Source: Clostridia bacterium (GTDB lineage Bacteria > Bacillota > Clostridia > Christensenellales > QALW01). From it: a DNA stretch of 64,000 nucleotides. Every line of letters starts with the position of its first letter. The first letter of the stretch is position 1. The position numbers and the translations under genes are program-made. The notes under the pieces were generated by a model. That model worked only from the letters and a program-made list of their open reading frames with translations. It searched no databases and was not told where the DNA came from. The stretch lies in contig JAZRXI010000077.1 in assembly GCA_045600145.1 (NCBI GenBank), positions 36,482-100,481 on the forward strand, read 5' to 3'. Positions 4,705-39,488 of this stretch are shown in pieces.

Positions 4705-5714
4705 GTTATATTAGTGAGTTTTTCGGCTGGATTTTCGATTGGATCAACGGCTTTACAAACAACTACGGTCTGTCGATAATCCTGTTTACGATACTTTTCA
4801 GGCTCGTGCTGTCACCCTTTGACATAAGAAGTCGTATCGGTCAGCGCGAATATACCGCCAAGATGGCTAAAATACAGCCTGAAATTGATATGATAAACAA
4901 GGCATACAAAAACAATCCCGAGAAAGCACAGCAGAGAATGATGGAAGTGCGTAAGCGCGAAGGCATCGGCATGATGCCCAAGGGTTGCGGTATGATGTTA
5001 TTGACCTACCCTATTCTTCTTGCGTTCTTTGCCGTATTCCGTAATCTCGCCGCTGAAAAGCTTTGTGAGCTTTCACAGCTTGCAAGTGACGCGGACATAG
5101 CGCAGTGGTTTGATACAAACAGCTTTTTGTGGATAAAAAACATTTGGCAACCCGACGTATATCTTAACTTCGGTCAGACATGGGGTCTGAGAACACTGTG
5201 GATAATCAAGAATATCGACGGATACATTCTGCCGCAGGCAAACGGCATAGCCGCAGTATTGCAATCGGCATTCAAGAGTGGAATGCTTGATGTATTCAAT
5301 CCCGGTGGGCTCGATTTCGCAGCGTTTACGGAGCAGGTAGCCACGGGGCTCGACGCGGCAAGAAGCTTCGCCTCATCCAATTTTGCGACCGGCGCATCAT
5401 GGATAGGCGGAAACGGCTTCTATATTTTCCCGATCCTTGCAGGCGTTGTACAGATTTGGAGTCTTAAGGCAACAAACGTACAGCAGCCGGCGCCCACCGA
5501 CGCTCAGGCGGCTCAAGCGGCAAGTACGGGCAAATTCATGAAGATATTCTTCCCCATAATGTTTGTTTATTTCTGTCTTGTATCATCTACGGCGCTCGCT
5601 ATTTATTGGGTTACCTCCAGTCTTTGCATGCTCGTTTTGAATTTTGTTATCAATAAAGTTCTCGACGCACGTGACAAAAAGAAAGCTTTAGCAGTTGAAG
5701 GAGAAAATAAATAA
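4701..5714 (+). CDS. yidC: Membrane protein insertase YidC
   Basis: Multi-TM protein in the rnpA-yidD-yidC-jag order. Start placed at the GTG overlapping the yidD stop; the ORF track's ATG at 4626 lies inside yidD. Confidence 0.88.
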
Positions 5715-6508
5715 TGGCAAGAGTCTTGGAAATTGAAGGCGATACCGTCGATCAGGCTTTATATTTAGGGCTTGAGCAGATGGGCCTTTCAATAGACGAA
5801 ATTGAAATGGAAGTAATTGAATACGGCAAAAAAGGCTTCATGGGCATTGGAAGCAAGCCCGCAAGAGTAAAGCTTACCGAACGTGAAGAAGCAATTGTGC
5901 CTGATTTTATTCTGAACAAAAAAGAAAAAGCCCCCCGTAAGGACAAAAAAGACCGTCCGCATAAAGACAGACGCGACAAATTCGAAAACCGCCGCGCTTC
6001 TGACGGTGATGGCGTTCCCGCGGTCAAAAAAGAGTATTTCCCCGAAGGTACCGAGTTCGTCGAAAACGAAGTTACTGAGTTTTTGAGCGGACTTATGAAG
6101 CATATCGGTGTCAACGGAACAGTAAAAGCCGCCAACACCGACAACGGTCTGCTTATCAACCTCGAAGGTGACGACATGGGCGTGCTCATCGGACATCGCG
6201 GCGAAACGCTCGACGCGATACAGTATCTTGCTTCGCTCGTTTACAACAAGGATAAAAATGATTATCAGCGCGTTACGGTCGATACCGAGAACTACCGCAC
6301 AAAACGTGAAGGAACACTCATCCGCCTTGCCCGCAAAAAAGCCGGTCAGGTAGCGCGCACAGGTCGCAAAGTCGTACTTGAGCCGATGAGCCCGTTTGAA
6401 CGCAGAATAATCCATTTTGCGCTCCAGAACGATAAATATGTTACCACCTACAGCGAGGGCGAAGAGCCTAACCGCCACATAGTTATCGACAAGAAGAAAG
6501 ACGAATAA
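5714..6508 (+). CDS. jag: RNA-binding protein Jag/KhpB (Jag_N, KH, R3H domains)
   Basis: 264 aa. Lys/Arg/Asp-rich linker; C-terminal R3H-type region (LEPMSPFERRIIHFAL). 1-nt overlap with the yidC stop. Confidence 0.85.
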   Translation: MARVLEIEGDTVDQALYLGLEQMGLSIDEIEMEVIEYGKKGFMGIGSKPARVKLTEREEAIVPDFILNKKEKAPRKDKKDRPHKDRRDKFENRRASDGDGVPAVKKEYFPEGTEFVENEVTEFLSGLMKHIGVNGTVKAANTDNGLLINLEGDDMGVLIGHRGETLDAIQYLASLVYNKDKNDYQRVTVDTENYRTKREGTLIRLARKKAGQVARTGRKVVLEPMSPFERRIIHFALQNDKYVTTYSEGEEPNRHIVIDKKKDE

Positions 6509-8523: not shown

Positions 8524-10824
8524 TCAAAATCTGTGCCAACGGCATCCAAAGAGTGACGGGAATGTATCGCCCTCGGCTTTTTGATAAAATACCGAATAGA
8601 ATGAGCCGTCGGAAAGCTCAGTTGCGGACGGATATCCGAGGTCGCCGTCGAAACCGAAGCAGATATGTTTTTCTTCGCCGAACGTCTTGCCTCCGTCAAC
8701 GCTAAAGCGCACACATTCACCGAACGGTTTCTCGCGTCTGCCGTAGCTCAGGAGCACATCGCCGCTTTGGGTCAGCAAAAGGTGCGGAGGCGCACCGCAA
8801 TAGCCTGTCAGAACGGGCTTTGTCCACGTTCTCCCGCCGTCATACGAAAAGGTTTTCACCATAGTCATATGTCCGTCCTTATCAACACGTATCATACCAA
8901 GCAGTGTACCATCGGGCAAACAAAGCGCGGCAGGCTCATGCAGATGCTCGGCTTTCAGTCCATCAGGCAGCGGAACCTTGCCGATAATTTCCCACGAGAT
9001 CCCGTCATTGTGGCTTACAGAGCAGTAAATCATATCTTTTTCGATATCAAGCCCGGAATAAAACTCTTTGCCCAAATGAAGTAACGTACCGTCCTTCATA
9101 AGCAAAGGTCCGTGCGGCGATGTCAGCGGTGCACGATGCGGTTCACTCCACGTCTTGCCGTAATCAAGAGAAATTTTTGTAAAAGAGCCGCCCGGCTCGC
9201 TGTGCTTCTTCCAATACTTTTTCATTACTTCGGATAGCGGAAGTGAATCCTCAGGTGTGATTTTTGTGATGATATCATCCCACCATTCATCGTACATCTC
9301 CGCAGGATGATCAAACCACATGAGCAGCATTTTACCGTTACCTATATATACCAGCCCTGTATCGCGGTCATCCATCAGTGTATCATTGACGATTATCGGT
9401 CCGCGCCAGGAAGCGCCGCGGTCGTCAGATATGAACATCTGATTCTGACCGAACGGGCAGATATGCGAAAGTCTGTGACCCGAGCAAACAGCGTAGAGTA
9501 CACCGTTTTCGTCCTGTGTTACTGTCGGCCAGCCTATGTAGCGAAACGGCAGCGACTCATGCCGGTAAATTATTTGTGCATCCATTATTAAACTCCGGCA
9601 ATCGAACAGCTGTCCCGGAAGCTTCTTTTTCTCTTTCGGCGGAAAATTCTTATCGAATTTTTCTACATCCTCGTCTTTGACATAATATCCCGACGGCGTC
9701 TGATATACTCCCGTAATACCGTCAAGATACCCCGGTATCAATTCCTTGCATAAAAAGAATGAATCGTCGGCGTCTTCCGGCAGATCATGATAGCGTATGC
9801 CGAATTTACGGGCATAGTCAAATCCGCTCTTGCCGTAAAAGCCGATATTTCCCTCAAAGAGTACAGCGCCGAAGCCCATTTCAGATGCCTTTTGCAAAGA
9901 AAAATCCAACAGCTTTTTACCGTAACCCTGGCGTTTAAGCTCAGGCTTGATTCCGATAGGACCCATCGTCAATATAGGAATGATCCTTCCGTCGTCTGCC
10001 TCGATAACGGTTTTTACAAACATGTTTTGCCCGATGATTTCTCCGTCCTTTTCCATGACCAAATCAAGCTCTTTGACGAACGCCGGATCGTCTCTCATCA
10101 AATAAATAACAAAATGCTCACTGCACCCCGGACGGTAAACATTCCAGAATGCTTCGCGTACAAGGTTTTCTACTGTTCTGTGTTCATCGTTTCTTTCCTC
10201 GCGTATTATAAAATCATTTTCCATTTTTTCTCCTTTTTTTGACTTTATCCACGCATCAAGATAAGTCATCTGTTTATCTGTATGAAACCAATGCTCGCCG
10301 CCTCGCATAACGGTGAGTGATGCGCCGGTTTTTTCCGTAAAAGATTTGACCGTATCCCGCGAAATCAGCATATCGTGTTCGCCGTAAAGAATATGTGTCG
10401 GCACATTCCAATTCACGGGATTTTCTCTTATATAGCAAAGATATTTCCACGACAACATCTCGCCGAACGATGTAAATATCTCCTTTTTATTCCGTAGCTC
10501 GCTTTCCGTGATGTTTTCGGACGTCATCATTTCAATGATAAGCTTTTCCATATCGACTACGGGCGAAATAAAAAATGCTTCTTCGATTCGTGCAGTTGCA
10601 TTCATCGCAAAAAACGCACCTATGCTGTTTGCTATCAAGGTAAACGCACCGTATTTTTTATTTATTTTGCCAAAAAACTCCGAAAACTCCGTTTTTGCAT
10701 CCCACGGAGTTTCAGAAAAATAATCAAATCCGATAACTTCACAATTTGGAAAAAGTGCTTTATAATGTGCGGCTTCCGAAGCGTCACCGCCCTTGCCGTG
10801 TATATAGATGACAGCCTTGCTCAT
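8524..10824 (-). CDS. Three-domain fusion protein: alpha/beta-hydrolase (esterase-like), GNAT N-acetyltransferase, BNR/Asp-box beta-propeller (sialidase-like)
   Basis: One uninterrupted frame. N-terminal domain has an ANSIG nucleophile elbow and ..GGEHWFH. Middle domain has a GNAT core (RQGYGKKLLD). C-terminal domain has five S-x-D-x-G-x-(T/S)-W/F Asp-boxes (SDDRGASW, SLDYGKTW, SHNDGISW, SYDGGRTW, SVDGGKTF). Start set at MSKAV (10824), after the upstream gene's stop. Confidence 0.7.
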   Translation of the reverse strand: MSKAVIYIHGKGGDASEAAHYKALFPNCEVIGFDYFSETPWDAKTEFSEFFGKINKKYGAFTLIANSIGAFFAMNATARIEEAFFISPVVDMEKLIIEMMTSENITESELRNKKEIFTSFGEMLSWKYLCYIRENPVNWNVPTHILYGEHDMLISRDTVKSFTEKTGASLTVMRGGEHWFHTDKQMTYLDAWIKSKKGEKMENDFIIREERNDEHRTVENLVREAFWNVYRPGCSEHFVIYLMRDDPAFVKELDLVMEKDGEIIGQNMFVKTVIEADDGRIIPILTMGPIGIKPELKRQGYGKKLLDFSLQKASEMGFGAVLFEGNIGFYGKSGFDYARKFGIRYHDLPEDADDSFFLCKELIPGYLDGITGVYQTPSGYYVKDEDVEKFDKNFPPKEKKKLPGQLFDCRSLIMDAQIIYRHESLPFRYIGWPTVTQDENGVLYAVCSGHRLSHICPFGQNQMFISDDRGASWRGPIIVNDTLMDDRDTGLVYIGNGKMLLMWFDHPAEMYDEWWDDIITKITPEDSLPLSEVMKKYWKKHSEPGGSFTKISLDYGKTWSEPHRAPLTSPHGPLLMKDGTLLHLGKEFYSGLDIEKDMIYCSVSHNDGISWEIIGKVPLPDGLKAEHLHEPAALCLPDGTLLGMIRVDKDGHMTMVKTFSYDGGRTWTKPVLTGYCGAPPHLLLTQSGDVLLSYGRREKPFGECVRFSVDGGKTFGEEKHICFGFDGDLGYPSATELSDGSFYSVFYQKAEGDTFPSLFGCRWHRF

Positions 10825-10834
10825 AGCTGTTCCG

Positions 10835-11539
10835 TCATTTTCGTCTGTTGCGTCCGCCGACAATAATCACAAGACGCAACAGCTGCATGACCGATACCGC
10901 GAGCGCGGCAACATACGTCAATGCGGCTGCACGAAGCACTTTTTTGGTGCCGCTGAGCTCGTCGCCGACAAGAAGCTGACCTTCTTCGATACACTTGACG
11001 GCACGTCTGCTCGCGTCAAATTCCGTCGGAAGCGTTATAAGTTGGAACAACGTACTGAGCGCGAAGCAGGCAACACCGACATACGCAATAAAGAAAAACG
11101 TTTCGCTCAGATAACCGAGCAGCAAGCCGATTATAATAAGCGGAACAGAAAGCTTTGATCCGATGTTCGTGACGGGGATTATAGCTGTTCTTAGCTTTAT
11201 CGGCACGTACTCGTCAGCATACTGTATCGCGTGCCCCGCTTCATGGCAGGCGACGCCTACCGCCGCCGTCGAAGCACTCGAATACACATTTTGTGAAAGT
11301 CGTATCACATTATCCTTCGGGTCATAGTGGTCGGTGAGGTCGCCCTGTATCATCTCTATTCTGACATCCTTAAGCCCGTTGGAATCAAGCACGAAGCGTG
11401 CGGCTTTCATTCCGGTGATATTTTTCGAATTATACTGCGTTTTGTATTGATTATAAACGTTATTTACATTTGCGCTCGCCCACAGAGCAAATATCATTGC
11501 AGGCAGGACGAACACAAGATAAGTCCAATCGAAGTACAT
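10835..11539 (-). CDS. Membrane zinc metallopeptidase, YugP-like (Zn_peptidase_2 family)
   Basis: 234 aa with N- and C-terminal TM segments and a HEAGHAIQ zinc-binding motif. Confidence 0.75.
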   Translation of the reverse strand: MYFDWTYLVFVLPAMIFALWASANVNNVYNQYKTQYNSKNITGMKAARFVLDSNGLKDVRIEMIQGDLTDHYDPKDNVIRLSQNVYSSASTAAVGVACHEAGHAIQYADEYVPIKLRTAIIPVTNIGSKLSVPLIIIGLLLGYLSETFFFIAYVGVACFALSTLFQLITLPTEFDASRRAVKCIEEGQLLVGDELSGTKKVLRAAALTYVAALAVSVMQLLRLVIIVGGRNRRK

Positions 11540-25188: not shown

Positions 25189-26220
25189 CTATATTTTAAC
25201 AAGTTTCGGAAAATTACGTTTTCTTTCAGTGAAAAATTTATAAAATTCCTTAAAAAGTATCCTTAAGATAATAAAAGCAGGTATCGCGAGCACCATTCCC
25301 AAAAAACTGCCGACGCTGTTCCCTGCCACAACGCACAACAGTACCGTAACGGGGTGCATCTTGACGCTTTCCGAAATCACGAACGGATGCACTATCAGAT
25401 TGTCTATCTGCTGTACCGCAAGAATCAGTATCAGTGCAAGCACGATTTTATTTCGAGTCGATGCCACAAGGATTATCGGAACGCTTCCGAGCAGTGGACC
25501 GACATACGGGATTATATTGAATATCCCCATTATTATGCCGAGTATCAGCCAATAGTCAAACCCGAAAACACCAAGCGTGCACGCCATCAGCGCACTTACT
25601 ATGACGGTTATGATGATTTGTCCCGAAACATAATCACGCAGTTGACGGTTGATATCACGGAAAAGATACATAACGGGCGTGCGTAGCTTGCCGGGCAGAA
25701 AAAAGAGACAGCGACTTCTTATTTTTTCTCTGTCCTTGAGCATATAAAACATCAGTACGGGCAGAAGGAGTGACGTTGCGAAAAACGATATTGCAGCGGA
25801 CGGTGAAAAACGTGTGAGCCAAGCGTCCAAAAAGCCGAAAACACTCGTTTTGACTTCAATTTTTTCTATGATCTCGCTGATGTACGGAATACCTCCCGCA
25901 TAGTTGTACACGAACGCACGAATACTTTCTATATAGTCGGGCAAGACGGCGGCAAAGGTCTTTATCTGCTGTGAAAACACCGGTATAACAAGTACGATAG
26001 CCGAAACATTTACCGCAAGCACGAGCAAAAATGCAAGGATTATCGCCGCTGTTTGCGGTATGCGCTTTTCAAGCGGCTTGACAATAGGCAAAAACAGATA
26101 CGCTTCAGCGGACGCGGCGAGCAGTAACCCCGCAATTTCAAGCACCGCGTTCCGTATAAGCAGTATTCCAGCGATCATGATAAGTGCGGCAAGCAAGAAT
26201 AAAATGACTCTTTTTTTCAT
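25189..26220 (-). CDS. AI-2E family transporter (PerM-like permease)
   Basis: 343 aa with about 8 TM segments. Conserved ..IPYVGP.. and ..HP(V/L)..L.. motifs. Confidence 0.78.
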   Translation of the reverse strand: MKKRVILFLLAALIMIAGILLIRNAVLEIAGLLLAASAEAYLFLPIVKPLEKRIPQTAAIILAFLLVLAVNVSAIVLVIPVFSQQIKTFAAVLPDYIESIRAFVYNYAGGIPYISEIIEKIEVKTSVFGFLDAWLTRFSPSAAISFFATSLLLPVLMFYMLKDREKIRSRCLFFLPGKLRTPVMYLFRDINRQLRDYVSGQIIITVIVSALMACTLGVFGFDYWLILGIIMGIFNIIPYVGPLLGSVPIILVASTRNKIVLALILILAVQQIDNLIVHPFVISESVKMHPVTVLLCVVAGNSVGSFLGMVLAIPAFIILRILFKEFYKFFTERKRNFPKLVKI

Positions 26221-30676: not shown

Positions 30677-31195
30677 TCAAATCTTTTTTTCCAAAATTTC
30701 AATATATGCCGACGCACGCTTCTTTGCCGCCGGAAGATCCATATCGGAATAATTACCGCACTCCTCAGGCGTTGCACCCGGAATGTCGCCCTCAAAGTCC
30801 GCGATAAAAGAAAATGTTTCTCTCATCAGCTCCGTTATGCTTTCAAGCGGAATGTCGCCCGCCATTATAAGATAAAATCCCGTCCTGCACCCCATCGGTC
30901 CCCAATAGATGACACGGTGCGCGATGTCACGTCTGTTGCGCAGATATGTTGCGCCGATATGCTCTATCGCGTGTATCTCGGCAGTCGTCATCACCGGCTC
31001 GAAATTCGGGCGCGTGATGCGAATGTCATATGTTGATATCGGATAGACCGTTTTTTCGTCAAGTCCGTCGTGTCTGACGGGAGCACTCTGATAAGCGTCA
31101 AACGCATCATGCGCACTGACGGTATCAAGTCTGCTTAAATACACTCCCGGCATGAGCGTCATGTGATCTATAGTAAAGCTCTTTATTTTTTCCAT
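30677..31195 (-). CDS. luxS: S-ribosylhomocysteine lyase LuxS
   Basis: Metal-binding HAIEH motif and ..ECGNY.. motif. Start set at MEKIKSFTIDH. Confidence 0.9.
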   Translation of the reverse strand: MEKIKSFTIDHMTLMPGVYLSRLDTVSAHDAFDAYQSAPVRHDGLDEKTVYPISTYDIRITRPNFEPVMTTAEIHAIEHIGATYLRNRRDIAHRVIYWGPMGCRTGFYLIMAGDIPLESITELMRETFSFIADFEGDIPGATPEECGNYSDMDLPAAKKRASAYIEILEKKI

Positions 31196-31321
31196 TTTAC
31201 ACCTCACAAATGATTTTCTACATTGTACCACAAACTTCCTTACAATTCAAGGTAAATATTCTACGCATTTTTCCTCGAAAATATCCAAAACAACAATTTT
31301 TCACATAAATAACTTATTTAT

Positions 31322-31384: not shown

Positions 31385-32530
31385 ATGGGAAATCGGCAAG
31401 TATCTACAGAAACCGTAAAGAATATTCTCAGCAAATTCAACATATCCGGCAATGTCTGCACCATAAAAGCAATAAACAGCGGATACATAAATACAACATA
31501 TAAAGTTGAAACCATATCAAATTCCGGTCACATACACAAGTACATACTCCAGCGCATAAATGAGAACGTCTTTCATGATATTGACGGGCTGATGAGCAAT
31601 TATTTGACAGTTACGACGTATCTTGCGGATTTCAAATTGCCCGGAACAAAGTCGAATCAGCATTCGGTACCTATTCTTAAGCTCACAAAAGACGGGAAAA
31701 AGCCGTACTGCAAAACAGAATACGGGTGCTGGCGTGTTACAAAATATATCGGCAGTGTCGTTTCGTTCGATATTCCCGATTCACCGCAAACCTTCTTCTA
31801 CGCGGGACAGGCGTTCGGTTCATTCGTCAAGGCTCTTTCGGGTATCGACCCGAACAAGATTTCCGTGATACTGCCCGATTTTCACAACACATTGAGCCGC
31901 TACAACGACCTGCAAAAAGCGATCGCACTTGACCCATTCGACCGCGTCAAAGATCTGAGCGTCGAGATCACGTCCGTTGAATCGCGCAGAGAGTTTTATC
32001 CGCTCATTTCAAACGCCCTTGAATCCGGCGAAATACCTACAAGGATCTGTCATAACGACTGCAATCTCAACAATATCCTATTTGATAAAAAGACCCGTCT
32101 GCCGGTGGCTATCATCGACCTCGACACAGTAATGCCATCTTCCCCGCTTTATGATTACGGCGACAGTATGCGTGTCGGTACAAATACTGCCAAGGATGAC
32201 GAAAAGGATCTCTCTAAGGTTTCGTGCGATCTTACGCTTTACGAAAAATACGCCGACGGCTATCTTTCCGTGTACGGCTCCGCTTTTACGGAAAAAGAAC
32301 TTGAATTGCTTCCGTATGCTTCAATAATAATCACTTCGGAGGACAGCATACGTTTTCTTATGGATCACATAAACGGCGATACTTATTACATCGTATCGTA
32401 CCCCGGTCAGAATCTTGACCGTGCGCGCACACAACTCAAGCTTGCGTCCGACATGCAGACCAAGCTTCCGCAGATAAAAGATATCCTGAACAAACTTTAC
32501 AGAAAATATGGTTTGAATAAAACACTTTAA
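31385..32530 (+). CDS. Anomeric N-acetylhexosamine 1-kinase-like phosphotransferase (NahK/AmgK-like, APH fold)
   Basis: GYINTTYKV, YILQRIN, ICHNDCNLNNILFD, AIIDLDTVMPSSPLYDYGDSMR and DDEKDLSKV closely parallel my recollection of Bifidobacterium NahK. Confidence 0.7.
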   Translation: MGNRQVSTETVKNILSKFNISGNVCTIKAINSGYINTTYKVETISNSGHIHKYILQRINENVFHDIDGLMSNYLTVTTYLADFKLPGTKSNQHSVPILKLTKDGKKPYCKTEYGCWRVTKYIGSVVSFDIPDSPQTFFYAGQAFGSFVKALSGIDPNKISVILPDFHNTLSRYNDLQKAIALDPFDRVKDLSVEITSVESRREFYPLISNALESGEIPTRICHNDCNLNNILFDKKTRLPVAIIDLDTVMPSSPLYDYGDSMRVGTNTAKDDEKDLSKVSCDLTLYEKYADGYLSVYGSAFTEKELELLPYASIIITSEDSIRFLMDHINGDTYYIVSYPGQNLDRARTQLKLASDMQTKLPQIKDILNKLYRKYGLNKTL

Positions 32531-32542
32531 GAGGAGTTTTTA

Positions 32543-33292
32543 ATGGAAAAGAACGTGCGGGTAATAATCCCCGCGGCAGGAAAGGGCTCGCGTCTGCACT
32601 GTGCCGATATCCCGAAAGCAATGCACAGAATATGCGACCGTCCGCTTATCGACATCGTTTTGGAGAACACATCCTTTATCTCTCCCGAAAACACATACAT
32701 CATCGTAGGTTACAAAAAAGAAAAAATAGTTGAATTTTACGGTAATAAGTATAATTACGTTTTTCAGAATGAACAGTTCGGAACGGGTCATGCCGTAATG
32801 CTGTGCAGTGACGCATTTAAGGATTTCGACGGAACGGTTTTGATAACCTTCGGTGATATGCCGCTTTTCCGCAAAGAAATCCTTAAAAAGCTGTGTGAGC
32901 ATCACAAACGCACCGGGGCTGCCTGCACGTTGCTCACAGCCATTGACCCAAAGCGTAATGATTGGGCGCATATATTGCGCGGCAACAACGGAGAATTTAT
33001 TTCCATAATCGAATACTACGACGCCACGCCGGAGCAATTAAGGGCAAACGAGCTGTTCGCCGGCGCGCTTGTTTTTGACAGTAAAGCGCTCTTTGACGTG
33101 CTTCCTTTGATGAGCTGCTCCAACGCTCTGAACGAATATTATCTTACCGAAGTGCCCGAAATACTCGCAAAGCATGGGCTTAAGATCGAAACGCTCGCAA
33201 CGGATGACAACAACGACCTGTGCGGAGTGAATACACCCGAGGATATGGTGATTTGCGAAGCCGTATACAAGGAACGTATGGGTATCGATTAA
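32543..33292 (+). CDS. Sugar-1-phosphate nucleotidyltransferase (GlmU N-terminal-domain-like / MurU-like), no acetyltransferase domain
   Basis: IIPAAGKGSRL..IPKAMH, QNEQFGTGHAV and FGDMPL are motifs of the GlmU pyrophosphorylase domain. 249 aa. Starts 12 nt after the kinase stop. Confidence 0.7.
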   Translation: MEKNVRVIIPAAGKGSRLHCADIPKAMHRICDRPLIDIVLENTSFISPENTYIIVGYKKEKIVEFYGNKYNYVFQNEQFGTGHAVMLCSDAFKDFDGTVLITFGDMPLFRKEILKKLCEHHKRTGAACTLLTAIDPKRNDWAHILRGNNGEFISIIEYYDATPEQLRANELFAGALVFDSKALFDVLPLMSCSNALNEYYLTEVPEILAKHGLKIETLATDDNNDLCGVNTPEDMVICEAVYKERMGID

Positions 33293-33321
33293 AAAAAGCA
33301 AAACATCTGCGTAAAATAGCG

Positions 33322-33370
33322 CAAAAAAACACTTGACGGAAGCTTTTTCCTCCGCGCAAGTGTTTTTCTT
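33322..33370. terminator. Terminator between the convergent nucleotidyltransferase (+) and STAS (-) genes
   Basis: A-run, imperfect hairpin CACTTGACGGA..TCCGCGCAAGTG, then TTTTT. Confidence 0.55.
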
Positions 33371-33387
33371 ACTTTGAAGCTATGAAA

Positions 33388-33681
33388 TCATTCTACCGTA
33401 AGTATGTCCGAAAATCCCGTTATTTCAAAAACTTCCATTATATCAGCGCAAACATTCTTGATGACCATGCTACCCTGCTTGTTCATAGTCTTTTGTGCCG
33501 CAAGCAAAACACGAAGTCCCGCCGAAGAAATGTATTCAAGCTTTTCAAAATCCATTATAAGCTCGGTCACATCGTCAATCGATTTGATTTCAGCCTCAAG
33601 CTGAGGTGCCGTAGTCGTATCAAGTCTTCCTGATACAGTAAGTTCAAGCTGTCCGCATGCTTTTCTTTTTGAAATGTCCAT
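33388..33681 (-). CDS. STAS-domain protein (anti-sigma-factor antagonist family)
   Basis: 97 aa. ..LEYISSAGLRVLL.. carries the phosphorylatable-Ser context. GGAGG lies 9 nt upstream. Confidence 0.8.
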   Translation of the reverse strand: MDISKRKACGQLELTVSGRLDTTTAPQLEAEIKSIDDVTELIMDFEKLEYISSAGLRVLLAAQKTMNKQGSMVIKNVCADIMEVFEITGFSDILTVE

Positions 33682-33696
33682 TATTCTATACCTCCA

Positions 33697-34875
33697 TTAA
33701 AATTCAAGTGTTTCAATTTTATCTAACAACTCAATGATATGGTTCTTATAAACCTCTATCGCTTTTTTGCCTTCCTCGCTCTCAAGTCCCTTACGTCTGA
33801 TGATGCGGCGCAAAAGTCTTGTATAACCTATCAGCATCGCCTTATTCTCGACATCGGCGATCCTTTCGGGGTCATCGGTTCCGAGATAAAGCGGAAGTGA
33901 CTTTTTCCAGATCGACACCGCTGTTTCATACGATATTCCGAGGAACGATTCTGAGACGCTGTGATCAAGCTCAGAAAATCCTATATAAGCGTTGTATACC
34001 GATGCAAGCTCAAACACAGGATGTCCCTGGCAAAGCGTATCCATATCAATAAGAAGCACTTCACCGTTCTGCATCATAACGTTTTTAATATGATAATCGC
34101 CGTGCATCATTCTGTGCACAACCGGCACCGCACATACAAGTGCATTGAGCTTTGACCATTTATCCTCAGGAAGATACGGCTTAAGGAATGCCACCCAATC
34201 AAGCACTACCGCGCGCATATCAGGCATATCCTCGGGCTTTACCTCGGTCGAATGTATCTTTTTCATGAGGTCAACATAAAGATCTACATATTTATCGAGA
34301 TTTTCGGGCTCCTGCTTGATAAGCTTTGAAAACGGAAGCGCATCAAGCAGCTCAAATACCGAGCCGTAGCCCGTTCCGACCTTAACGACATCATATGGAA
34401 TGGCTGTCGGAATTCCGAGCACGAACGCGCGGCGTGCAAGCTCACGCTCTCTGTGTATATCCGGCAAGCTGTCCGGGTTGAAATATACTTTGATAATGGT
34501 ATCGGGATCCAGCCGATAAACCTTACCGTTAGCGCCTTGACCGATGACCTCACAGCCATCTACCGACAATTTGCGGTATGCCTTTTCAACGGTTATCATT
34601 TCGGTGAATCCGGTCATATCGAAAATATCATAAACTTCACTAGAAGCATTGATTATTTTCATATCCTTGGATTCCTTGCGTACTCTGAGAACTATGCGCA
34701 GACCGGCACTTGAAATATATTCAAGCTCATCAACATCCAAGACTATCGTGTCATGCGGTGTTTTGCAGGCATCCACTACCAGCGCTTCTACCTGCGCGGC
34801 ATTGGAAGAATCCACACGCCCTGCAAGCGTAATGACCAGTGCTCCGTTCTCGACTTTTGAATTGACTGTAGCCAT
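33697..34875 (-). CDS. STAS domain fused to a protein-kinase-like (APH/PKL-fold) domain
   Basis: Residues 1-97 are STAS (LEYISSAGLRIVL). The remainder has a Gly-rich loop GQGANGKVYRL..IIKVY, a catalytic HGDYHIKNVMM and a LIDMDT motif. AAGGAGAA lies upstream. Confidence 0.7.
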   Translation of the reverse strand: MATVNSKVENGALVITLAGRVDSSNAAQVEALVVDACKTPHDTIVLDVDELEYISSAGLRIVLRVRKESKDMKIINASSEVYDIFDMTGFTEMITVEKAYRKLSVDGCEVIGQGANGKVYRLDPDTIIKVYFNPDSLPDIHRERELARRAFVLGIPTAIPYDVVKVGTGYGSVFELLDALPFSKLIKQEPENLDKYVDLYVDLMKKIHSTEVKPEDMPDMRAVVLDWVAFLKPYLPEDKWSKLNALVCAVPVVHRMMHGDYHIKNVMMQNGEVLLIDMDTLCQGHPVFELASVYNAYIGFSELDHSVSESFLGISYETAVSIWKKSLPLYLGTDDPERIADVENKAMLIGYTRLLRRIIRRKGLESEEGKKAIEVYKNHIIELLDKIETLEF

Positions 34876-34890
34876 CCTTGATTTCTCCTT

Positions 34891-35451
34891 TTAAGCAAAT
34901 AGTTTATTTAATAATTGCACATATTCCATATATGCTGCATTGTCCTTGAGTGAAGCCGTGTATTCTGCCACGGAGCGGTAATACCATTCGTGCATTTTCT
35001 TATCCTTTTGATGAAAGACTTCGAATGCGGCGTCGCCTCGTTCAAGCCACATGCGGTAAAACGAACGTATATTCGCAAGCTTATCGGCAAGCCACAGTAT
35101 TTTGATGTTTTCGTCATCCGTGTTTTTCAGCACCTCAAGCGATTCTTCCTTGCGGATCTTCCATGTCTGCTCCGCGGGAATATCCTTCCGCTTGTTTTCC
35201 GTTTCGCTTTTGACTAATGCCGCCACATACTCGCCGAAATTTTTGACTATTTCTTCCTCTTTTGCCTTCGTATCCTCCAGCACATCGTGCAGAAGTCCCG
35301 CGATCATAACGTCCTCGTCGCACGTTATGCCGGCTATTATCGAAGCCACCTCCATAGGATGTATTATATACGGTATTTTCCCCGTTTTACGCATCTGCCC
35401 TTCGTGACAGCGTGCCGCAAAGATTATTGCATTGTTAAGTTGTTCGCTCAT
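34891..35451 (-). CDS. HD-domain protein, SpoT/Mesh1-type (p)ppGpp hydrolase-like (small alarmone hydrolase type)
   Basis: AARCHEGQMRKTGKIPYIIHPMEVA and GLLHDVLEDT match the RelA/SpoT hydrolase-domain signature. 186 aa with no synthetase domain. ATGA overlap with the upstream gene. Confidence 0.72.
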   Translation of the reverse strand: MSEQLNNAIIFAARCHEGQMRKTGKIPYIIHPMEVASIIAGITCDEDVMIAGLLHDVLEDTKAKEEEIVKNFGEYVAALVKSETENKRKDIPAEQTWKIRKEESLEVLKNTDDENIKILWLADKLANIRSFYRMWLERGDAAFEVFHQKDKKMHEWYYRSVAEYTASLKDNAAYMEYVQLLNKLFA

Positions 35452-38345
35452 ATTTTTTTCACCAATGTAAGAATGTTCTTGTCGCTCTCATATCTGTATT
35501 GCATATCATCCATAGTCTGCTTAACCATATATATGCCGAGTCCGCCGATGTTGCGTTCCTCTGCCGAAAGGGTGATATCCGGGTCTTCCTTCGTAACGGG
35601 GTTATACGGTGTACCTTCATCAATAAAGGTAAGATGTACGTACGAATCGTTCGTGGCCTTTATCTGTACTGTTACCGGACCCTTGCCGTCCGGATACGCA
35701 AATTTGGCGATGTTGCTGTATATTTCATCGACTGCTATATTCATCTGAACGATCGTCTTCATCGGGCATTCAAGCTTTTCAAGCTCTTGCTCAACAAATT
35801 CCGTTACAGCCGGAATGTCATCTATTTTTGCTTCATCAAAATGTATCTCAGGCACTATATTTCCCATAAACTTTAATCCCACCATAGTAATATCGTCAAA
35901 CTGCGGTGCTTCACCAACGAAAGCATCGACGCTTGCCTTGACCGTTTCACACAACAACTTTACATCAGTAAACCGCTGTGAATTTACGGTTTCAAGCAAT
36001 CTGTCCTCGCCGAAAAGCTGATTGTCGGCATTTGTCGCTTCGGTAACACCGTCCGTATAAAGAAATACTATGTCGCCGGGTGAAAGCTGCATTTCCTGCA
36101 TCTTGTATTTTACGCCATCCATACCCGCAAGCACGAAGCCGACCTTTGAGCGCAAATATTCAAAATTGCCGTCGCCGTGACGCACAAGCGGAGGATTGTG
36201 TCCTGCCGATACATACTGTACCTTGCCCGTATCAAGGTTTACACTTCCCTGCCATGCCGTTACGAACATTCCCGCGTCATTGCCCTCGCAGAGCGCGCTG
36301 TTGCCGGCAGTGAATACTTCATTTATCGGCATATCGGTTTCAGTAAGAGATTTAAGCTCTGTCTTGGCGCGCATCATGAACATTGCCGCCGGTATTCCCT
36401 TACCTGAGACGTCGGCTACAAGGAAATTAAGGATGTTATGGTGACTCGTATAGAAATCATAGAAATCTCCGCCGACCTCTTTTGCCGTATTCATCATTGC
36501 GAAAATTTCAAAATCCTTTCGCTTCGGGAAGACATTCGGCAATGCTGAGCTTTGGATGCTCTTTGCAAATTCAAGCTCCTTATCAATTCTTGCCGACGCC
36601 GCTTCAATATAATTTTTAAGAGTAGTGACCGTTGAGTTTATGTCGTCCGAAAGCGACGCAAATTCCTCGTTCGACCTTACGTTGACAGTTTCATCAAGGT
36701 CGCCGCCCGTGATTTTCTGCAACGAACAGTTTATCGACTTTATCTGATTTACGACAGCGTTCTTAATAAGGAAGTAAATGAACGCAAACAACAGCGCAAA
36801 GACGAGCACCTCCATGAACGTGTTTACATACATCGTGGTGGTGAATTGATTCATTGCCTCATTTTTCGGATACGCGGCAACGACGTAATATCCCTCGGTC
36901 ATATCGCAGCTACAAAAGCATGGCGTTTTGTTGATTTCGAACTCAAACACACTGCCATCGCAGTTTTCCAATATTTCAGCCGAGTACGTTGATAAGTCCT
37001 GAGTGTCGAAGTCCTCCGGAGCGCTGACGATGTCGAAATTTTTATCAAATATAAGCACATATCCCGTTTCGCCGACGTGACGGTTTTTTGTGATATCTAT
37101 TACCTGCTCTGCCATTCGTGCCTGAAACAGAAGCGTATCGTACCCCACTTGAATGAAACCGTCGTCGGTCTTGATACCCGCATATTTGCGCGAGATCGTC
37201 GGGTCAGAGGTTATCGCACCGTATTCCTGAACAAACTGCTGAGTGTCTCCGAGCAACACAAGGAATTCCGCCGCCTGCGGTCCGGAGTGCATATCAAAAC
37301 CGATATATTCGAGATTCGTGCTTTCGACGATTATACCGTCTTTGCTGATGACGCTTATTTCGGAAAGCTCATATTTCGCGGCAAGGCTTTTTATATTGTT
37401 CTTTGTTTTTTCCTTTTGCACCATTCTCGCAATTTGCAAAATATTGGCGTCTGCCGCGTCGCCTATATCCGCTTTTGTTTCGGCGGTAGCCAACGTAAGT
37501 AACTGTTCACGCTGGTTTACGGATATCGACGTTTGAAGTGTATATACAAAATACGTAGTGAGCGCAAATGCGACAACTATCGTTATAAGCAGTGACCTTT
37601 GTACGATTTCCGATATGCGCATGCGCTGTTTTCTCTGTGCCTTTTTGCCTTCGGAGATCATAACAATAAAAATCGTTGCTATTGCAGACGCGCAGGCATT
37701 CGCAGTGATCATCGGCAGTGAGCACGCCTTTACGACCTCTATCGCCTTATCGGGCGTTGCCATGTTCGTAATGAATACCATCGTCAAGTGGAATACCTCC
37801 ATTACGATGCCTATCGCGAATGAAAGCACCCAACCGGGCTTTTTATTCTCAAACATGAACTTGCGGAGCAATGCCGCGTAAATACCTGCTATAGCCGTTG
37901 AAAGACTGCACGCCACTCTCGTAAAGGTACCAACGCCCCAAGCGACGGCTATCCAGCGTTCAACACCGCCGATAAGACCGGCGATTATACCGGCAGGCGC
38001 ACCGAACAGCAAGCCTGCGGTCAGCACCGCGGCATCACGACAGTTTATCTGCGCTCCGTTTATCGGTATGCCGTATTCGGTACCGAGCACGGCAAGTGCG
38101 CCGAAAATAATTCCATAAAGTATCTGCTTGACCGCACCGGGCATTTTGCCGCACACGGTCTTTTTGTCTATCCAATATAATATTACACTGACAGCCGCGG
38201 GCAACAGTGACACCGTGCCGAGCCTTACATACGGATTTCCAAGCATTGCTAAAATAAAATTCCAAATATCGCTGAAAAACTGTATCAATAGATATGCCCC
38301 TTTTCGAGTCCGGTAATGATTTCTTTTCAGAAAAAAACCGAGCAT
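35448..38345 (-). CDS. Membrane sensor protein: 5TMR-LYT-like N-terminus, Cache-like extracytoplasmic domain, HAMP, PP2C (SpoIIE/RsbU-type) phosphatase, C-terminal RsbW/SpoIIAB-type GHKL kinase domain
   Basis: 965 aa. Polytopic N-terminus (about aa 35-230). A roughly 240-aa loop between TM helices at about 251-270 and 509-527. HAMP-like region at 528-582. PP2C motifs GGDFYDF, VADVSGKG, YTDGVTEA, DDITMV. C-terminal ..NIGGLGIYMV.. G-box. Start is uncertain because there is no clear SD. Confidence 0.75.
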   Translation of the reverse strand: MLGFFLKRNHYRTRKGAYLLIQFFSDIWNFILAMLGNPYVRLGTVSLLPAAVSVILYWIDKKTVCGKMPGAVKQILYGIIFGALAVLGTEYGIPINGAQINCRDAAVLTAGLLFGAPAGIIAGLIGGVERWIAVAWGVGTFTRVACSLSTAIAGIYAALLRKFMFENKKPGWVLSFAIGIVMEVFHLTMVFITNMATPDKAIEVVKACSLPMITANACASAIATIFIVMISEGKKAQRKQRMRISEIVQRSLLITIVVAFALTTYFVYTLQTSISVNQREQLLTLATAETKADIGDAADANILQIARMVQKEKTKNNIKSLAAKYELSEISVISKDGIIVESTNLEYIGFDMHSGPQAAEFLVLLGDTQQFVQEYGAITSDPTISRKYAGIKTDDGFIQVGYDTLLFQARMAEQVIDITKNRHVGETGYVLIFDKNFDIVSAPEDFDTQDLSTYSAEILENCDGSVFEFEINKTPCFCSCDMTEGYYVVAAYPKNEAMNQFTTTMYVNTFMEVLVFALLFAFIYFLIKNAVVNQIKSINCSLQKITGGDLDETVNVRSNEEFASLSDDINSTVTTLKNYIEAASARIDKELEFAKSIQSSALPNVFPKRKDFEIFAMMNTAKEVGGDFYDFYTSHHNILNFLVADVSGKGIPAAMFMMRAKTELKSLTETDMPINEVFTAGNSALCEGNDAGMFVTAWQGSVNLDTGKVQYVSAGHNPPLVRHGDGNFEYLRSKVGFVLAGMDGVKYKMQEMQLSPGDIVFLYTDGVTEATNADNQLFGEDRLLETVNSQRFTDVKLLCETVKASVDAFVGEAPQFDDITMVGLKFMGNIVPEIHFDEAKIDDIPAVTEFVEQELEKLECPMKTIVQMNIAVDEIYSNIAKFAYPDGKGPVTVQIKATNDSYVHLTFIDEGTPYNPVTKEDPDITLSAEERNIGGLGIYMVKQTMDDMQYRYESDKNILTLVKKI

Positions 38346-38362
38346 TTATAAATATTTATATT

Positions 38363-38391
38363 ATTGTATATTAAGATACGAAAAAAGTCAA
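38363..38391 (-). promoter_or_regulatory. Candidate sigma-A promoter of the four-gene signalling operon
   Basis: Minus strand reads TTGACT, 17-nt spacer, TACAAT. The -10 element ends 17 nt before the annotated ATG. Confidence 0.45.
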
Positions 38392-38687
38392 TCACAAAAG
38401 TGCATATAAATAAAATTTATTGCGTTTTTCAGTGCCACCGGCATGAAACCGTGCCGTCACCGTTCATTTTGAGCATAACGCCGTAAGGTGCGCACATTTT
38501 CACAAGTCTTTCAATGAACGGCGAATCTGCCGACGCGATGTGTGGAAGCCCCTCGTTGAGCTTATCGTCCGTTCCTGACAGCTCTACCGGCAGAAGCGTA
38601 AGCTCCGTCAAAACACCGTCATTACTTTTTTATCCTTGAGCAAAGAGTTTTGCAAAATATTGGTGACACAAAAAACGCTCAAATATC

Positions 38688-39488
38688 TTACAGTGCCGTT
38701 TGAGTGTCGTTCGGATCACCGTTGCGGGCAAGCTCGTACTCCTTCGACCAGTCAAGCTCACGGTATTCTTCACCGCGCGGATCGGTCTTTATCCATGCAA
38801 GTAGCATATCGAGCATTTCTTCCGTCCAAGTATTCTTATCTATCTGTGCCGTCGTGAATTTGTTTTGCGCTATCATTTCAAAGCCGAAATCGTCCTTGAC
38901 ATGTGTCTTTGCCGCTCCGTCAACCACATCGGCAACAAGGTGCGCCGGTATGAACATCACACCGCCTCCCGCACCGAAAACGACATCACCGGGCAGACAC
39001 ACAGCGCCCCCGAAATTCGTAACAGTGTTAAAGCCCGTCATAACGAACTCTCTTATCGGAGTCGGGTCTATGCCGCGGTAATACACCTGCACGTCGGGTA
39101 CTTTTTTTATTTGTTCGACATCGCGGATCCCGCCCCATATCACTGCGCCTCCGTTCTTTGTGCGAGTGCGAATGGCAGTGGTAAGATTGCCGCCCAAAAA
39201 TGTACCCTTATAAATTTTATCATACATATCGGCAACGACAACATCGCGCTCGACAAGCGTATCTATGACCCACTGATTATAATTGCCCTTTCTGCCTTCC
39301 TCGGCGCCTTTTTGAAACATGACCTCATGGAGATCGGGTCGCGTCGGACAAAATGAGCAGGTTACGGCTCTGCCGACTAATTTTCTGCCGTCATCGTGTT
39401 TTGCAATAATTTGTTCGTTTTTTTTTACTCTCTGCTCCGTTGGGCTTCCCCGCAAGTCCCATGATGCAAAAGATAAATGCGGAAACAT
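38688..39488 (-). CDS. RraA-like family protein (RraA / HMG-aldolase fold), function unknown
   Basis: 266 aa. The central ..GGNLTTAIRTRTKNGGAVIWGGIRDVEQI.. resembles the RraA/aldolase family core. Tentative. Confidence 0.5.
   Translation of the reverse strand: MFPHLSFASWDLRGSPTEQRVKKNEQIIAKHDDGRKLVGRAVTCSFCPTRPDLHEVMFQKGAEEGRKGNYNQWVIDTLVERDVVVADMYDKIYKGTFLGGNLTTAIRTRTKNGGAVIWGGIRDVEQIKKVPDVQVYYRGIDPTPIREFVMTGFNTVTNFGGAVCLPGDVVFGAGGGVMFIPAHLVADVVDGAAKTHVKDDFGFEMIAQNKFTTAQIDKNTWTEEMLDMLLAWIKTDPRGEEYRELDWSKEYELARNGDPNDTQTAL

Follow-up and report, generated by a model that had tools for sequence, protein, structure and literature searches.

The classical target of the GHKL protein in a partner switch is a sigma factor, which is bound when the STAS protein is phosphorylated. 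The 64-kb stretch of Clostridia DNA analyzed here (the window) contains a four-gene operon with the phosphatase, kinase and STAS parts of such a switch, and a Pfam scan found no sigma factor among the operon genes and the ten genes flanking them. This raises the question of what the switch controls.

Organization of the operon and domains of its products

The four genes are co-directional on the minus strand, in the order g1-g2-g3-g4, and all features described below lie on that strand. Open reading frames and Pfam matches define g1 (35448-38345; 965 aa, the length of the public gene call) as a membrane sensor that carries both a PP2C phosphatase domain and an RsbW-type Ser kinase domain, g2 (34891-35451; 186 aa) as a small-alarmone-hydrolase-type HD_4 protein, g3 (33697-34875; 392 aa) as a STAS domain fused to an APH-fold kinase, and g4 (33388-33681; 97 aa) as a stand-alone STAS protein. 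The start and stop codons of g1 and g2 overlap in an ATGA at 35448-35451, and 15-nt spacers, each with a Shine-Dalgarno site, separate g2 from g3 (aaggagaaatcaagg) and g3 from g4 (tggaggtatagaata). This packing agrees in all respects with a preliminary description of the locus, and every domain proposed there scored above its curated Pfam cut-off. The intrinsic terminator placed at about 33322-33370 is borne out by its folding energy (hairpin of -26.5 kcal/mol, z = -5.3, with none of 200 shuffles folding equally well) and by the U-run that follows; it is probably bidirectional and common to the operon and the convergent gene at 32543-33292. The sigma-70-type promoter TTGACT-N17-TACAAT (38363-38391) is likewise present as described, with a 10/12 match that is the top score in 33200-38700, but it must be regarded as a candidate, since the region holds 9 promoter-like sites against 10.7 in shuffles. 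Only 18 nt separate the end of its -10 hexamer from the downstream g1 ATG, which is not preceded by a Shine-Dalgarno site. Domain HMMs identified no additional STAS or GHKL domain within the 64-kb window.

The g1 sensor begins with a 5TMR-LYT membrane domain (aa 71-227, 37665-38135; PF07694, 5TM-5TMR_LYT, 4e-28), followed by a variable domain (about aa 285-500, 36846-37493), a PP2C/SpoIIE phosphatase domain (aa 640-826, 35868-36428; PF07228, 1.1e-47) and an RsbW/SpoIIAB-type GHKL domain (aa 839-963, 35457-35831; PF13581, HATPase_c_2, 2.8e-20). The variable domain has hydrophobic segments on both sides and is probably extracellular; a Cache-like fold is possible but unconfirmed, the dCache_1 match being weak (0.0037, below cut-off). 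This domain is missing in the g1 orthologs of loci L001, L050 and L055. The PP2C motifs GGDFYD, ADVSGKG, YTDG and DDITM are kept across 11 g1 orthologs, as are the GHKL boxes (N-box E..N, D.G.P(Y/F)NP and GGLGI). Although g1 passes PF13581, it scores far below the cut-offs of the NCBIfam RsbW and SpoIIAB equivalog models, and thus belongs to the same family without being an ortholog of either protein.

The HD_4 domain of g2 (PF13328, 8.9e-24, above the curated cut-off) has as its closest solved relatives L. levettii RelH (7QOE, 9.3e-23), Lmo0812 (4YF1) and Rel hydrolase domains, and was also aligned with 6S2T. Its best PDB matches include the small alarmone hydrolases (SAHs) Mesh1, RelH of C. 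glutamicum and L. levettii, PaSAH and XccSAH, which like g2 have a single HD_4 domain, roughly 190 aa long, and all the catalytic residues. The Rel/Mesh1 catalytic residues (His, His-Asp, Glu-Asp, Asp...Asn) are complete in this single domain, and across 65 cassette HD proteins the conservation of H16, R21, H31, H55, D56, E59, D60, D123, N127 and R129 is 95% or higher. Judged by these intact residues, alarmone hydrolysis by g2 is plausible. Bacterial SAHs known so far occur as orphans, as the antitoxins of toxSAS pairs or in phages (PMC7229694), and HD genes of the g2 clade are also found as orphans or in a prophage-like region. A toxSAS/SAH antitoxin role for g2 was rejected, as no RelA_SpoT synthetase domain is present in the four genes or among their recurrent neighbors. 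We know of no report of an SAH that is fused to a kinase or encoded beside STAS, PP2C or GHKL genes.

In g3, an N-terminal STAS domain (aa 5-98, 34582-34863; PF01740, 2e-14) precedes an APH-fold, eukaryotic-like kinase domain (aa 100-392, 33700-34578; PF01636, 5.8e-17, 62.7 bits against a cut-off of 23.2). The predicted phosphorylatable serine, Ser56 (codon 34708-34710), aligns with SpoIIAA Ser58 and is invariant in 24 of 24 diverse homologs. These homologs also show no variation at the kinase residues G114, K129, H258, N265 and D277, and conservation of D260 reaches at least 90%. The stand-alone protein g4 (PF01740, 7.3e-13) shares 38% identity with the g3 STAS domain, and both pass TIGR00377 (1.2e-17 for g4, above cut-off); g4 Ser53 (codon 33523-33525), like g3 Ser56, aligns with SpoIIAA Ser58 and lies inside an EYISSAGLR motif present in both proteins. 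Catalytic residues are intact in all four enzymatic domains of the operon.

The AF2 model of g3 (pLDDT 93, pTM 0.78) finds its nearest PDB folds in APH(2''), APH(3'), MPH, MTR kinase and FN3K. With these small-molecule kinases, as with the macrolide and capreomycin phosphotransferases, g3 shares the fold, the beta-3 Lys, the HxDxxxxN motif and the metal-binding Asp; in contrast to them it carries an invariant PTAI motif of its own family and the STAS domain. Identity to the solved APH-type kinases is only 12-17%, a generic level of match from which no substrate can be inferred. The best NCBIfam match, TIGR02172 (2.3e-29), reaches 102.8 bits against a cut-off of 228.2, which makes g3 a member of a related sister family and not of TIGR02172 itself. 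A role as an antibiotic-resistance kinase was set aside given the STAS fusion, the linkage to a sensor and the fusion to HD domains described below.

Conservation and natural fusions of the cassette

The closest relative is a Clostridia MAG (L004), at 84% identity. The STAS-APH fusion is present in at least 596 loci in species-representative genomes and, at 50% identity, falls into at least 707 clusters. Neighborhoods were counted in 58 genome loci with enough flanking sequence and in a distant set of 21. GHKL, PP2C or free STAS accompanies the fusion in 48 of the 58 loci, with a GHKL Ser kinase in 42; an HD gene is present in 35 and lies directly upstream of STAS-APH in 31, and STAS-APH occurs without HD in 23. 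Junctions between HD and STAS-APH are tight, with an overlap or a gap of at most 59 nt in 43 of 45. Some loci carry HD, STAS-APH and STAS with GHKL absent nearby, and STAS-APH stands alone in 7 of the 58 close loci and 8 of the 21 distant ones. The distant branches, recovered by a metagenome scan at 30-40% identity, keep PP2C, GHKL and STAS neighbors and have HD in 3 of 21, many of these contigs being short. Sampling from the HD side met the cassette in two of four cases.

The preliminary description took the four-gene neighborhood as the unit. Its linkage is indeed conserved in many genomes and in differing surroundings, the L001 cassette for example lying in a genomic neighborhood unlike that of the window, but the four-gene set as such is not the unit, as the exact window layout recurs in only 5 of 58 loci. 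What is conserved is a modular cassette around the STAS-APH kinase, usually with the HD_4 gene directly upstream, in which PP2C, GHKL and free STAS differ from locus to locus in whether and in what order they occur and in whether they are fused or split. Among 121 ORFs adjoining homologous cassettes, neither a sigma factor nor a family of DNA-binding proteins is recurrent, in support of the preliminary description; the ten flanking genes of the window likewise include no sigma factor. An anti-phage defense system was rejected, none of the four proteins matching a PADLOC defense-system model.

The modules of the cassette are also found joined in single proteins. Pfam confirms HD_4-APH (L137, L138), HD_4-STAS-APH (L124), STAS-HD_4 (L055) and STAS-APH-HATPase_c_2 (L064) fusions, and domain HMMs or precomputed Pfam assignments add further STAS-APH-GHKL proteins (L078, L081, L092, L094, L096, L104, L106 and L172). 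The STAS-HD_4 fusion is rare, and its three clusters serve as supporting rather than strong evidence. The HD_4-APH family is large, with 896 matches at E <= 1e-10, the best 120 of which are all about 490 aa long and contain both domains. These proteins correspond to g2 (50% identity over 179 aa) joined to the kinase part of g3 (34% over 296 aa), and both the HD and the kinase active sites are invariant; the AF2 model has a pTM of 0.79, with low confidence in the linker at 195-197. The HD_4-APH fusions are stand-alone genes that have no partner-switching parts adjacent, which indicates that the enzyme pair can work without such input. Related cassettes include a STAS-HAD phosphatase fusion, and in other genomes a GHKL-like domain is apparently fused to an SDF transporter.

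Comparison with known partner switches

A comparison of the cassette with the RsbU/RsbV/RsbW and SpoIIE/SpoIIAA/SpoIIAB modules of Bacillus shows the same complement of parts. At the level of sequence these are a PP2C domain with its metal-binding aspartates, a HATPase_c_2 Ser kinase domain with N, G1 and G2 boxes, and STAS proteins with a putative acceptor serine at the same position. Unlike the Bacillus modules, the cassette contains no sigma factor, combines phosphatase and kinase in one membrane protein, fuses STAS to an APH-fold kinase and includes an HD_4 hydrolase in the operon. Sigma-independent partner switches are known in SiaABCD and HsbR/HsbA of Pseudomonas, SypE/SypA of Vibrio fischeri, BtrU/V/W of Bordetella, the IcfG cluster of Synechocystis and HenR of Anabaena, and the missing sigma factor is thus not in itself new. 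In these systems a PP2C phosphatase works with a kinase on a STAS-type protein to control an enzyme or a process in place of a sigma factor, and the cassette would do likewise; SypE, like g1, unites an RsbW-type kinase and a PP2C phosphatase in one polypeptide. The cassette differs from them in the covalent fusion of STAS to the output enzyme and in its 5TMR-LYT membrane sensor, and to our knowledge no described partner switch has as its output an SAH-type hydrolase combined with an APH-fold kinase. The literature on sigma-independent switches includes PMC8256260, PMC8457831 and PMC13555669.

Candidate outputs and significance

We tentatively favor, with slightly less than even confidence, the reading that the cassette is a sigma-less partner switch whose regulated output is a two-enzyme unit formed by the HD hydrolase and the APH-fold kinase. 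The preliminary description had proposed one or the other of these as the output. Both are retained here, but the choice between them is not, as the existence of HD_4-APH and HD_4-STAS-APH fusions suggests that the output is probably the two enzymes as a pair. In the mechanism that we infer, an envelope or extracellular cue would be sensed by g1 through its 5TMR-LYT domain and, where present, its extracellular domain, and would shift the balance between the PP2C phosphatase and the RsbW-type Ser kinase. These opposing activities would set the phosphorylation of g3 Ser56 and g4 Ser53, and the STAS domains would, according to their state, be held by the GHKL domain or be free. The held or free state would in turn physically gate the fused APH-fold kinase and its partner hydrolase g2, with g4 acting as a second, competing STAS substrate or as a buffer. 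Kinase and hydrolase would form a coupled, probably opposing pair that shares one phosphorylated small molecule as substrate, the most likely candidate being a nucleotide with a 2'/3'-(pyro)phosphate on the ribose, and would in this respect resemble the hydrolase/synthetase of Rel/SpoT. The proposed make-and-break pair fits the chemistry of SAHs, which strip 2'/3'-(pyro)phosphates off purine nucleotides, NADPH included (PMC9765508). Several observations weigh against this reading: STAS-APH stands alone in some loci, HD genes of the g2 clade exist as orphans or in a prophage-like region, the HD_4-APH fusions lie apart from partner-switching genes, and the 12-17% identity of g3 to solved kinases points to no particular substrate.

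A possible but rather unlikely alternative is that alarmone hydrolysis is the sole enzymatic output. The g2 protein would then simply hydrolyze (p)ppGpp, pGpp or (p)ppApp, the APH domain of g3 would act on g2 or the STAS proteins as a regulatory protein kinase or scaffold, and the cassette would tune the stringent response to envelope signals. That g2 keeps every Rel/Mesh1 catalytic residue and that L. levettii RelH, its closest solved relative, hydrolyzes (p)ppGpp are both consistent with this, and in the loci with HD, STAS-APH and STAS that have no GHKL nearby the APH-fold kinase could serve as the STAS kinase. However, 42 of 58 loci already have a GHKL Ser kinase and so need no further kinase for STAS, the nearest folds of g3 are small-molecule kinases and not Hanks-type protein kinases, and the kinase active site is still invariant in HD_4-APH fusions, which have no STAS domain.

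It is also conceivable, though improbable, that the linkage is regulatory only, with the HD protein and the APH-fold kinase acting on different substrates (e.g., a nucleotide and a sugar or lipid) and being co-regulated by one switch. The STAS-HAD phosphatase and the GHKL-like SDF transporters of related cassettes suggest that the switch is used for several outputs, and HD is missing beside STAS-APH in 23 of 58 loci. Against this, the HD and STAS-APH genes mostly overlap or nearly abut, and the direct HD_4-APH fusions, encoded by stand-alone genes, make up a large and well-conserved family with both active sites intact; a direct fusion of two enzymes is the usual signature of one pathway or one metabolite.

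Very unlikely is a classical anti-sigma module whose GHKL domain sequesters a sigma factor encoded elsewhere, with ordinary anti-anti-sigma STAS proteins and with the HD and APH proteins as passengers: the GHKL and STAS domains belong to the families of RsbW/SpoIIAB (HATPase_c_2) and RsbV/SpoIIAA (STAS), g3 homologs are publicly annotated "anti-sigma factor antagonist" and the visible DNA is 64 kb of the genome, but no sigma factor was found in the operon and its ten flanking genes or recurs among the 121 ORFs beside homologous cassettes, a GHKL domain tethered to a membrane phosphatase, or elsewhere fused to STAS-APH or apparently to an SDF transporter, makes little sense as a soluble anti-sigma factor, and the fusion of STAS to APH, HD_4 and HAD enzymes points to enzymes as the targets.

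If the output is, as we favor, the hydrolase-kinase pair, a more specific proposal can be made, which we consider doubtful. The APH-fold kinase would write, and the HD_4 domain erase, a new phosphorylated nucleotide-type messenger, for example a nucleotide or a dinucleotide cofactor bearing a phosphate at the 2'/3'-OH of its ribose. The two enzymes would be united as a single HD_4-APH enzyme in many gut Firmicutes and placed under partner-switch control here. In the HD_4-APH proteins, whose two active sites are both conserved, the HD hydrolase precedes a phosphotransferase domain as it does in long RSH enzymes (Rel/SpoT), but the second domain of HD_4-APH has an APH/protein-kinase-like fold in place of the RelA_SpoT nucleotidyltransferase and would thus transfer phosphate rather than pyrophosphate. 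Other bifunctional make-and-break enzymes include PFK-2/FBPase-2 and AceK. If this proposal is true, the pair would constitute a second alarmone-like system, independent of Rel.

In conclusion, the four-gene operon is a real, widely conserved signaling cassette of gut Firmicutes and apparently an undescribed one. In agreement with the preliminary description, which had recognized no such system, the literature searched, which took in a minority of subscription journals, contained no account of this gene combination, and in the same coverage nothing relevant was found on TIGR02172 or on STAS or partner switching with SAH, alarmone or Mesh1. The regulation of SAHs has been termed unclear (PMC9293644), and to this open question the cassette offers a testable answer, namely STAS phosphorylation by a sensor phosphatase/kinase. 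Its conserved serines, catalytic residues and natural fusions make mutant and assay work directly feasible. The linkage of HD_4 and APH, by fusion and by adjacency, represents a widespread and unstudied two-enzyme unit that may make and break a signaling metabolite; it is found in Clostridia and Erysipelotrichia, and in some Coriobacteriia, of the human and animal gut. Taken together, the STAS-APH, STAS-HD, STAS-HAD and GHKL-like SDF proteins suggest that STAS and GHKL domains act as portable adaptors through which metabolic enzymes as well as transporters are regulated.

Operon structure and active sites

The four-gene feature is real: g1 (35448-38345, 965 aa), g2 (34891-35451, 186 aa), g3 (33697-34875, 392 aa) and g4 (33388-33681, 97 aa) were called as co-directional ORFs on the minus strand of the window, and every domain named in the preliminary description was matched by Pfam above curated cut-offs. 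The sensor g1 carries a 5TM-5TMR_LYT region (aa 71-227), a SpoIIE/PP2C phosphatase domain (aa 640-826, 1.1e-47) and a GHKL kinase domain (HATPase_c_2, aa 839-963, 2.8e-20), with only a sub-threshold Cache-like match in its middle region; g2 is an HD_4 protein (8.9e-24), g3 a STAS-APH fusion and g4 a free STAS protein. The ATGA overlap of g1 and g2 was confirmed at 35448-35451, both 15-nt spacers (g2/g3 and g3/g4) were recovered with AAGGAG and GGAGG, and the terminator downstream of g4 proved strong (-26.5 kcal/mol, z = -5.3) and is followed by a U-run. The proposed promoter, TTGACT-N17-TACAAT at 38391-38363, is the best match in the region but is retained as a candidate only, because such sites are no more frequent here than in shuffled sequence. 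Its -10 hexamer ends 18 nt from the g1 ATG, which would give the mRNA a very short leader, and the g1 start (38345-38391) has no Shine-Dalgarno site. The g1 N terminus varies among orthologs, with the first ~33 residues kept solely in the closest, at locus L004.

Judged by their residues, the active sites of the operon proteins look functional. The PP2C metal-binding motifs of g1 are kept in 11 of 11 aligned orthologs, across which the N, G1 and G2 boxes of its GHKL domain are also conserved. Both STAS domains contain EYISSAGLR. The residue phosphorylated in SpoIIAA, Ser58, corresponds in alignment to g3 Ser56 and g4 Ser53, and 24 homologs of only 33-72% identity all keep Ser56. The solved structures closest to g2 are bona fide small alarmone hydrolases (SAHs) and Rel hydrolase domains, and its Rel/Mesh1 catalytic set (H31, H55-D56, E59-D60, D123, N127, plus R21 and R129) shows at least 95% conservation among 65 cassette HD proteins. 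The g3 kinase domain retains the beta-3 Lys, HxDxxxxN and the metal-binding Asp. The AF2 model of g3 is confident (pLDDT 93), and its kinase fold resembles the APH, MPH, MTR-kinase and FN3K small-molecule kinases at just 12-17% identity, from which a substrate is not inferable.

Convergent with the operon, and sharing its terminator, is a plus-strand pair (31385-33292) encoding another APH-family kinase of 381 aa, unrelated to that of g3, and then an NTP_transferase (249 aa), presumably resembling an AmgK/MurU-type anomeric sugar kinase and nucleotidyltransferase. A few kilobases downstream of the operon, also on the minus strand, lie genes for LuxS (S-ribosylhomocysteinase, 30677-31231, 6.8e-52) and an AI-2E family transporter (25189-26220, 1.3e-49), with glycoside hydrolases (apiosidase-like, GH39) between them.

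Cassette conservation and a proposed enzymatic core

The STAS-APH family comprises 707 clusters at 50% identity (E < 1e-30), nearly all ~390 aa, and at least 596 loci among one-genome-per-species representatives, in Oscillospiraceae, Acutalibacteraceae, Lachnospiraceae (e.g., Coprococcus catus), Flavonifractor, Erysipelotrichaceae and even Atopobiaceae. The 80 closest loci were annotated in two rounds, tblastn/blastp followed by HMMs derived from these loci; layout counts rest on the 58 with sufficient flanking DNA. Partner-switching parts are found in 48 of the 58 (GHKL 42, free STAS 37, PP2C 31) and an HD gene in 35, directly upstream of STAS-APH in 31; seven have STAS-APH alone. HD/STAS-APH junctions overlap or nearly abut in 43/45 cases. 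The exact window layout occurs at five loci; others reorder the parts (e.g., STAS / PP2C-GHKL / HD / STAS-APH), split PP2C and GHKL into separate genes or lack some parts. Since the surrounding genes differ from locus to locus, the cassette moves as a unit. In distant kinase-family branches the PP2C, GHKL and STAS neighbors persist and HD is rarer. Tandem kinase duplicates were seen at L099:309-2722 (two STAS-APH genes) and L145:5617-7467 (two APH-only genes).

Sampling from the HD side placed two of four relatives in a cassette, one as an orphan and one in a prophage-like region. P0473, a close HD_4 relative from an Eggerthellaceae MAG (L171:5001-5579), has a prophage-like setting, with Macro, ADP-ribosylglycohydrolase, NUDIX, phage scaffold and capsid genes beside it; hydrolases of this clade therefore also serve outside the cassette.

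Pfam identified fusions of HD_4-APH (L137, L138), HD_4-STAS-APH (L124), STAS-HD_4 (L055), STAS-APH-HATPase_c_2 (L064) and APH-HATPase_c_2 (L146). STAS-APH-HATPase_c_2 recurs at several further loci (our domain HMMs, precomputed Pfam matches), and STAS-HD_4 is supporting evidence only, because it is rare (three clusters). At E <= 1e-10 the HD_4-APH family counts 896 matches. Each of the 120 top-scoring ones is ~490 aa long and carries both domains, and most of these 120 come from Lachnospiraceae, Ruminococcus and Eubacterium. The fusion matches g2 and g3 in colinear order: the entire HD protein at 50% identity, then the g3 kinase part (34%, 296 aa). Both active sites are invariant, and the gene stands alone in variable surroundings. 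From the fusions we conclude that the enzymatic core is probably an HD hydrolase and an APH-fold kinase working together, to which STAS, GHKL and PP2C would be attached as regulatory input in window-type cassettes. At L168, a divergent 341-aa STAS-containing protein (4829-5854) is encoded beside the stand-alone HD_4-APH gene P0277, and a 628-aa SpoIIE phosphatase (9264-11150) ~2 kb from it; some genomes may place the fused enzymes, too, under control by STAS and PP2C.

Possible use of STAS and GHKL domains as adaptors

The absence of a co-encoded sigma factor was upheld: a Pfam scan detected none among the ten flanking genes, our domain HMMs detected no STAS or GHKL elsewhere in the 64-kb window, and no sigma or DNA-binding family recurs in 121 ORFs immediately flanking or embedded in homologous cassettes. 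The sole recurrent extra family in those ORFs is an SDF (sodium:dicarboxylate symporter) transporter, at eight loci (L037:8495-10159, L041:8493-10157, L011:5358-7001, L018:2815-4467, L021:2869-4485, L058:1950-3548, L094:8918-10525, L097:585-2207). All eight have an N-terminal extension of ~140-175 aa, which in L037 matches our RsbW-type GHKL model (E = 7e-8), and the transporter may be regulated by the same STAS switch as the cassette enzymes. Another STAS-fused phospho-metabolite enzyme is encoded at L073:4801-5922, where Pfam detects a STAS domain joined to a HAD phosphatase of the Cof type (Hydrolase_3, 2.2e-55). The cassette around this gene also contains STAS, GHKL, HD and STAS-APH, and L089:817-1929 probably also encodes a STAS-HAD fusion. 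The pattern fits the use of STAS/GHKL domains as adaptors on enzymes and transporters and agrees poorly with a soluble anti-sigma factor. A sigma factor may still be encoded elsewhere in the genome.

Relation to known systems and proposed mechanism

The cassette shares three of the defining parts of partner-switching systems and would work like one, but lacks a sigma target. This absence is not new: SiaABCD, HsbR/HsbA, SypE/SypA, Btr, IcfG and HenR are established partner switches that do without a sigma factor. What is new is the pairing of an SAH-type hydrolase with an APH-fold kinase as output, together with the covalent fusion of STAS to a kinase, the HD_4-APH fusion family and the 5TMR-LYT sensor architecture. 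No paper describing the cassette was found in the literature searched, HD/APH/STAS linkage is not mentioned in the RSH and SAH surveys examined, and PADLOC returned no defense-system match for the operon proteins.

From the observed domains, residues, linkage and fusions, we infer a mechanism in four steps. A membrane or extracellular cue would shift the g1 kinase/phosphatase balance, which would set the phosphorylation level of g3 Ser56 and g4 Ser53; the STAS state would then control both the kinase joined to STAS and the HD enzyme paired with it, and these two enzymes would exert opposed activities on one phosphorylated small molecule. The main rival holds that g2 is merely a regulated (p)ppGpp hydrolase, an activity possessed by its closest solved relative, L. 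levettii RelH (7QOE), with the APH-fold domain regulatory. That the HD/APH pair defines a new messenger system is a minority possibility.

Make-and-break enzymes such as Rel/SpoT and PFK-2/FBPase-2 classically join a kinase and a phosphohydrolase in a single chain. SAH enzymes act on purine nucleotides, NADPH included, by stripping off 2'- or 3'-(pyro)phosphates (PMC9765508). Given this substrate chemistry and enzyme design, we hypothesize that a ribose-phosphorylated nucleotide would be the most natural candidate substrate of the kinase/HD pair.
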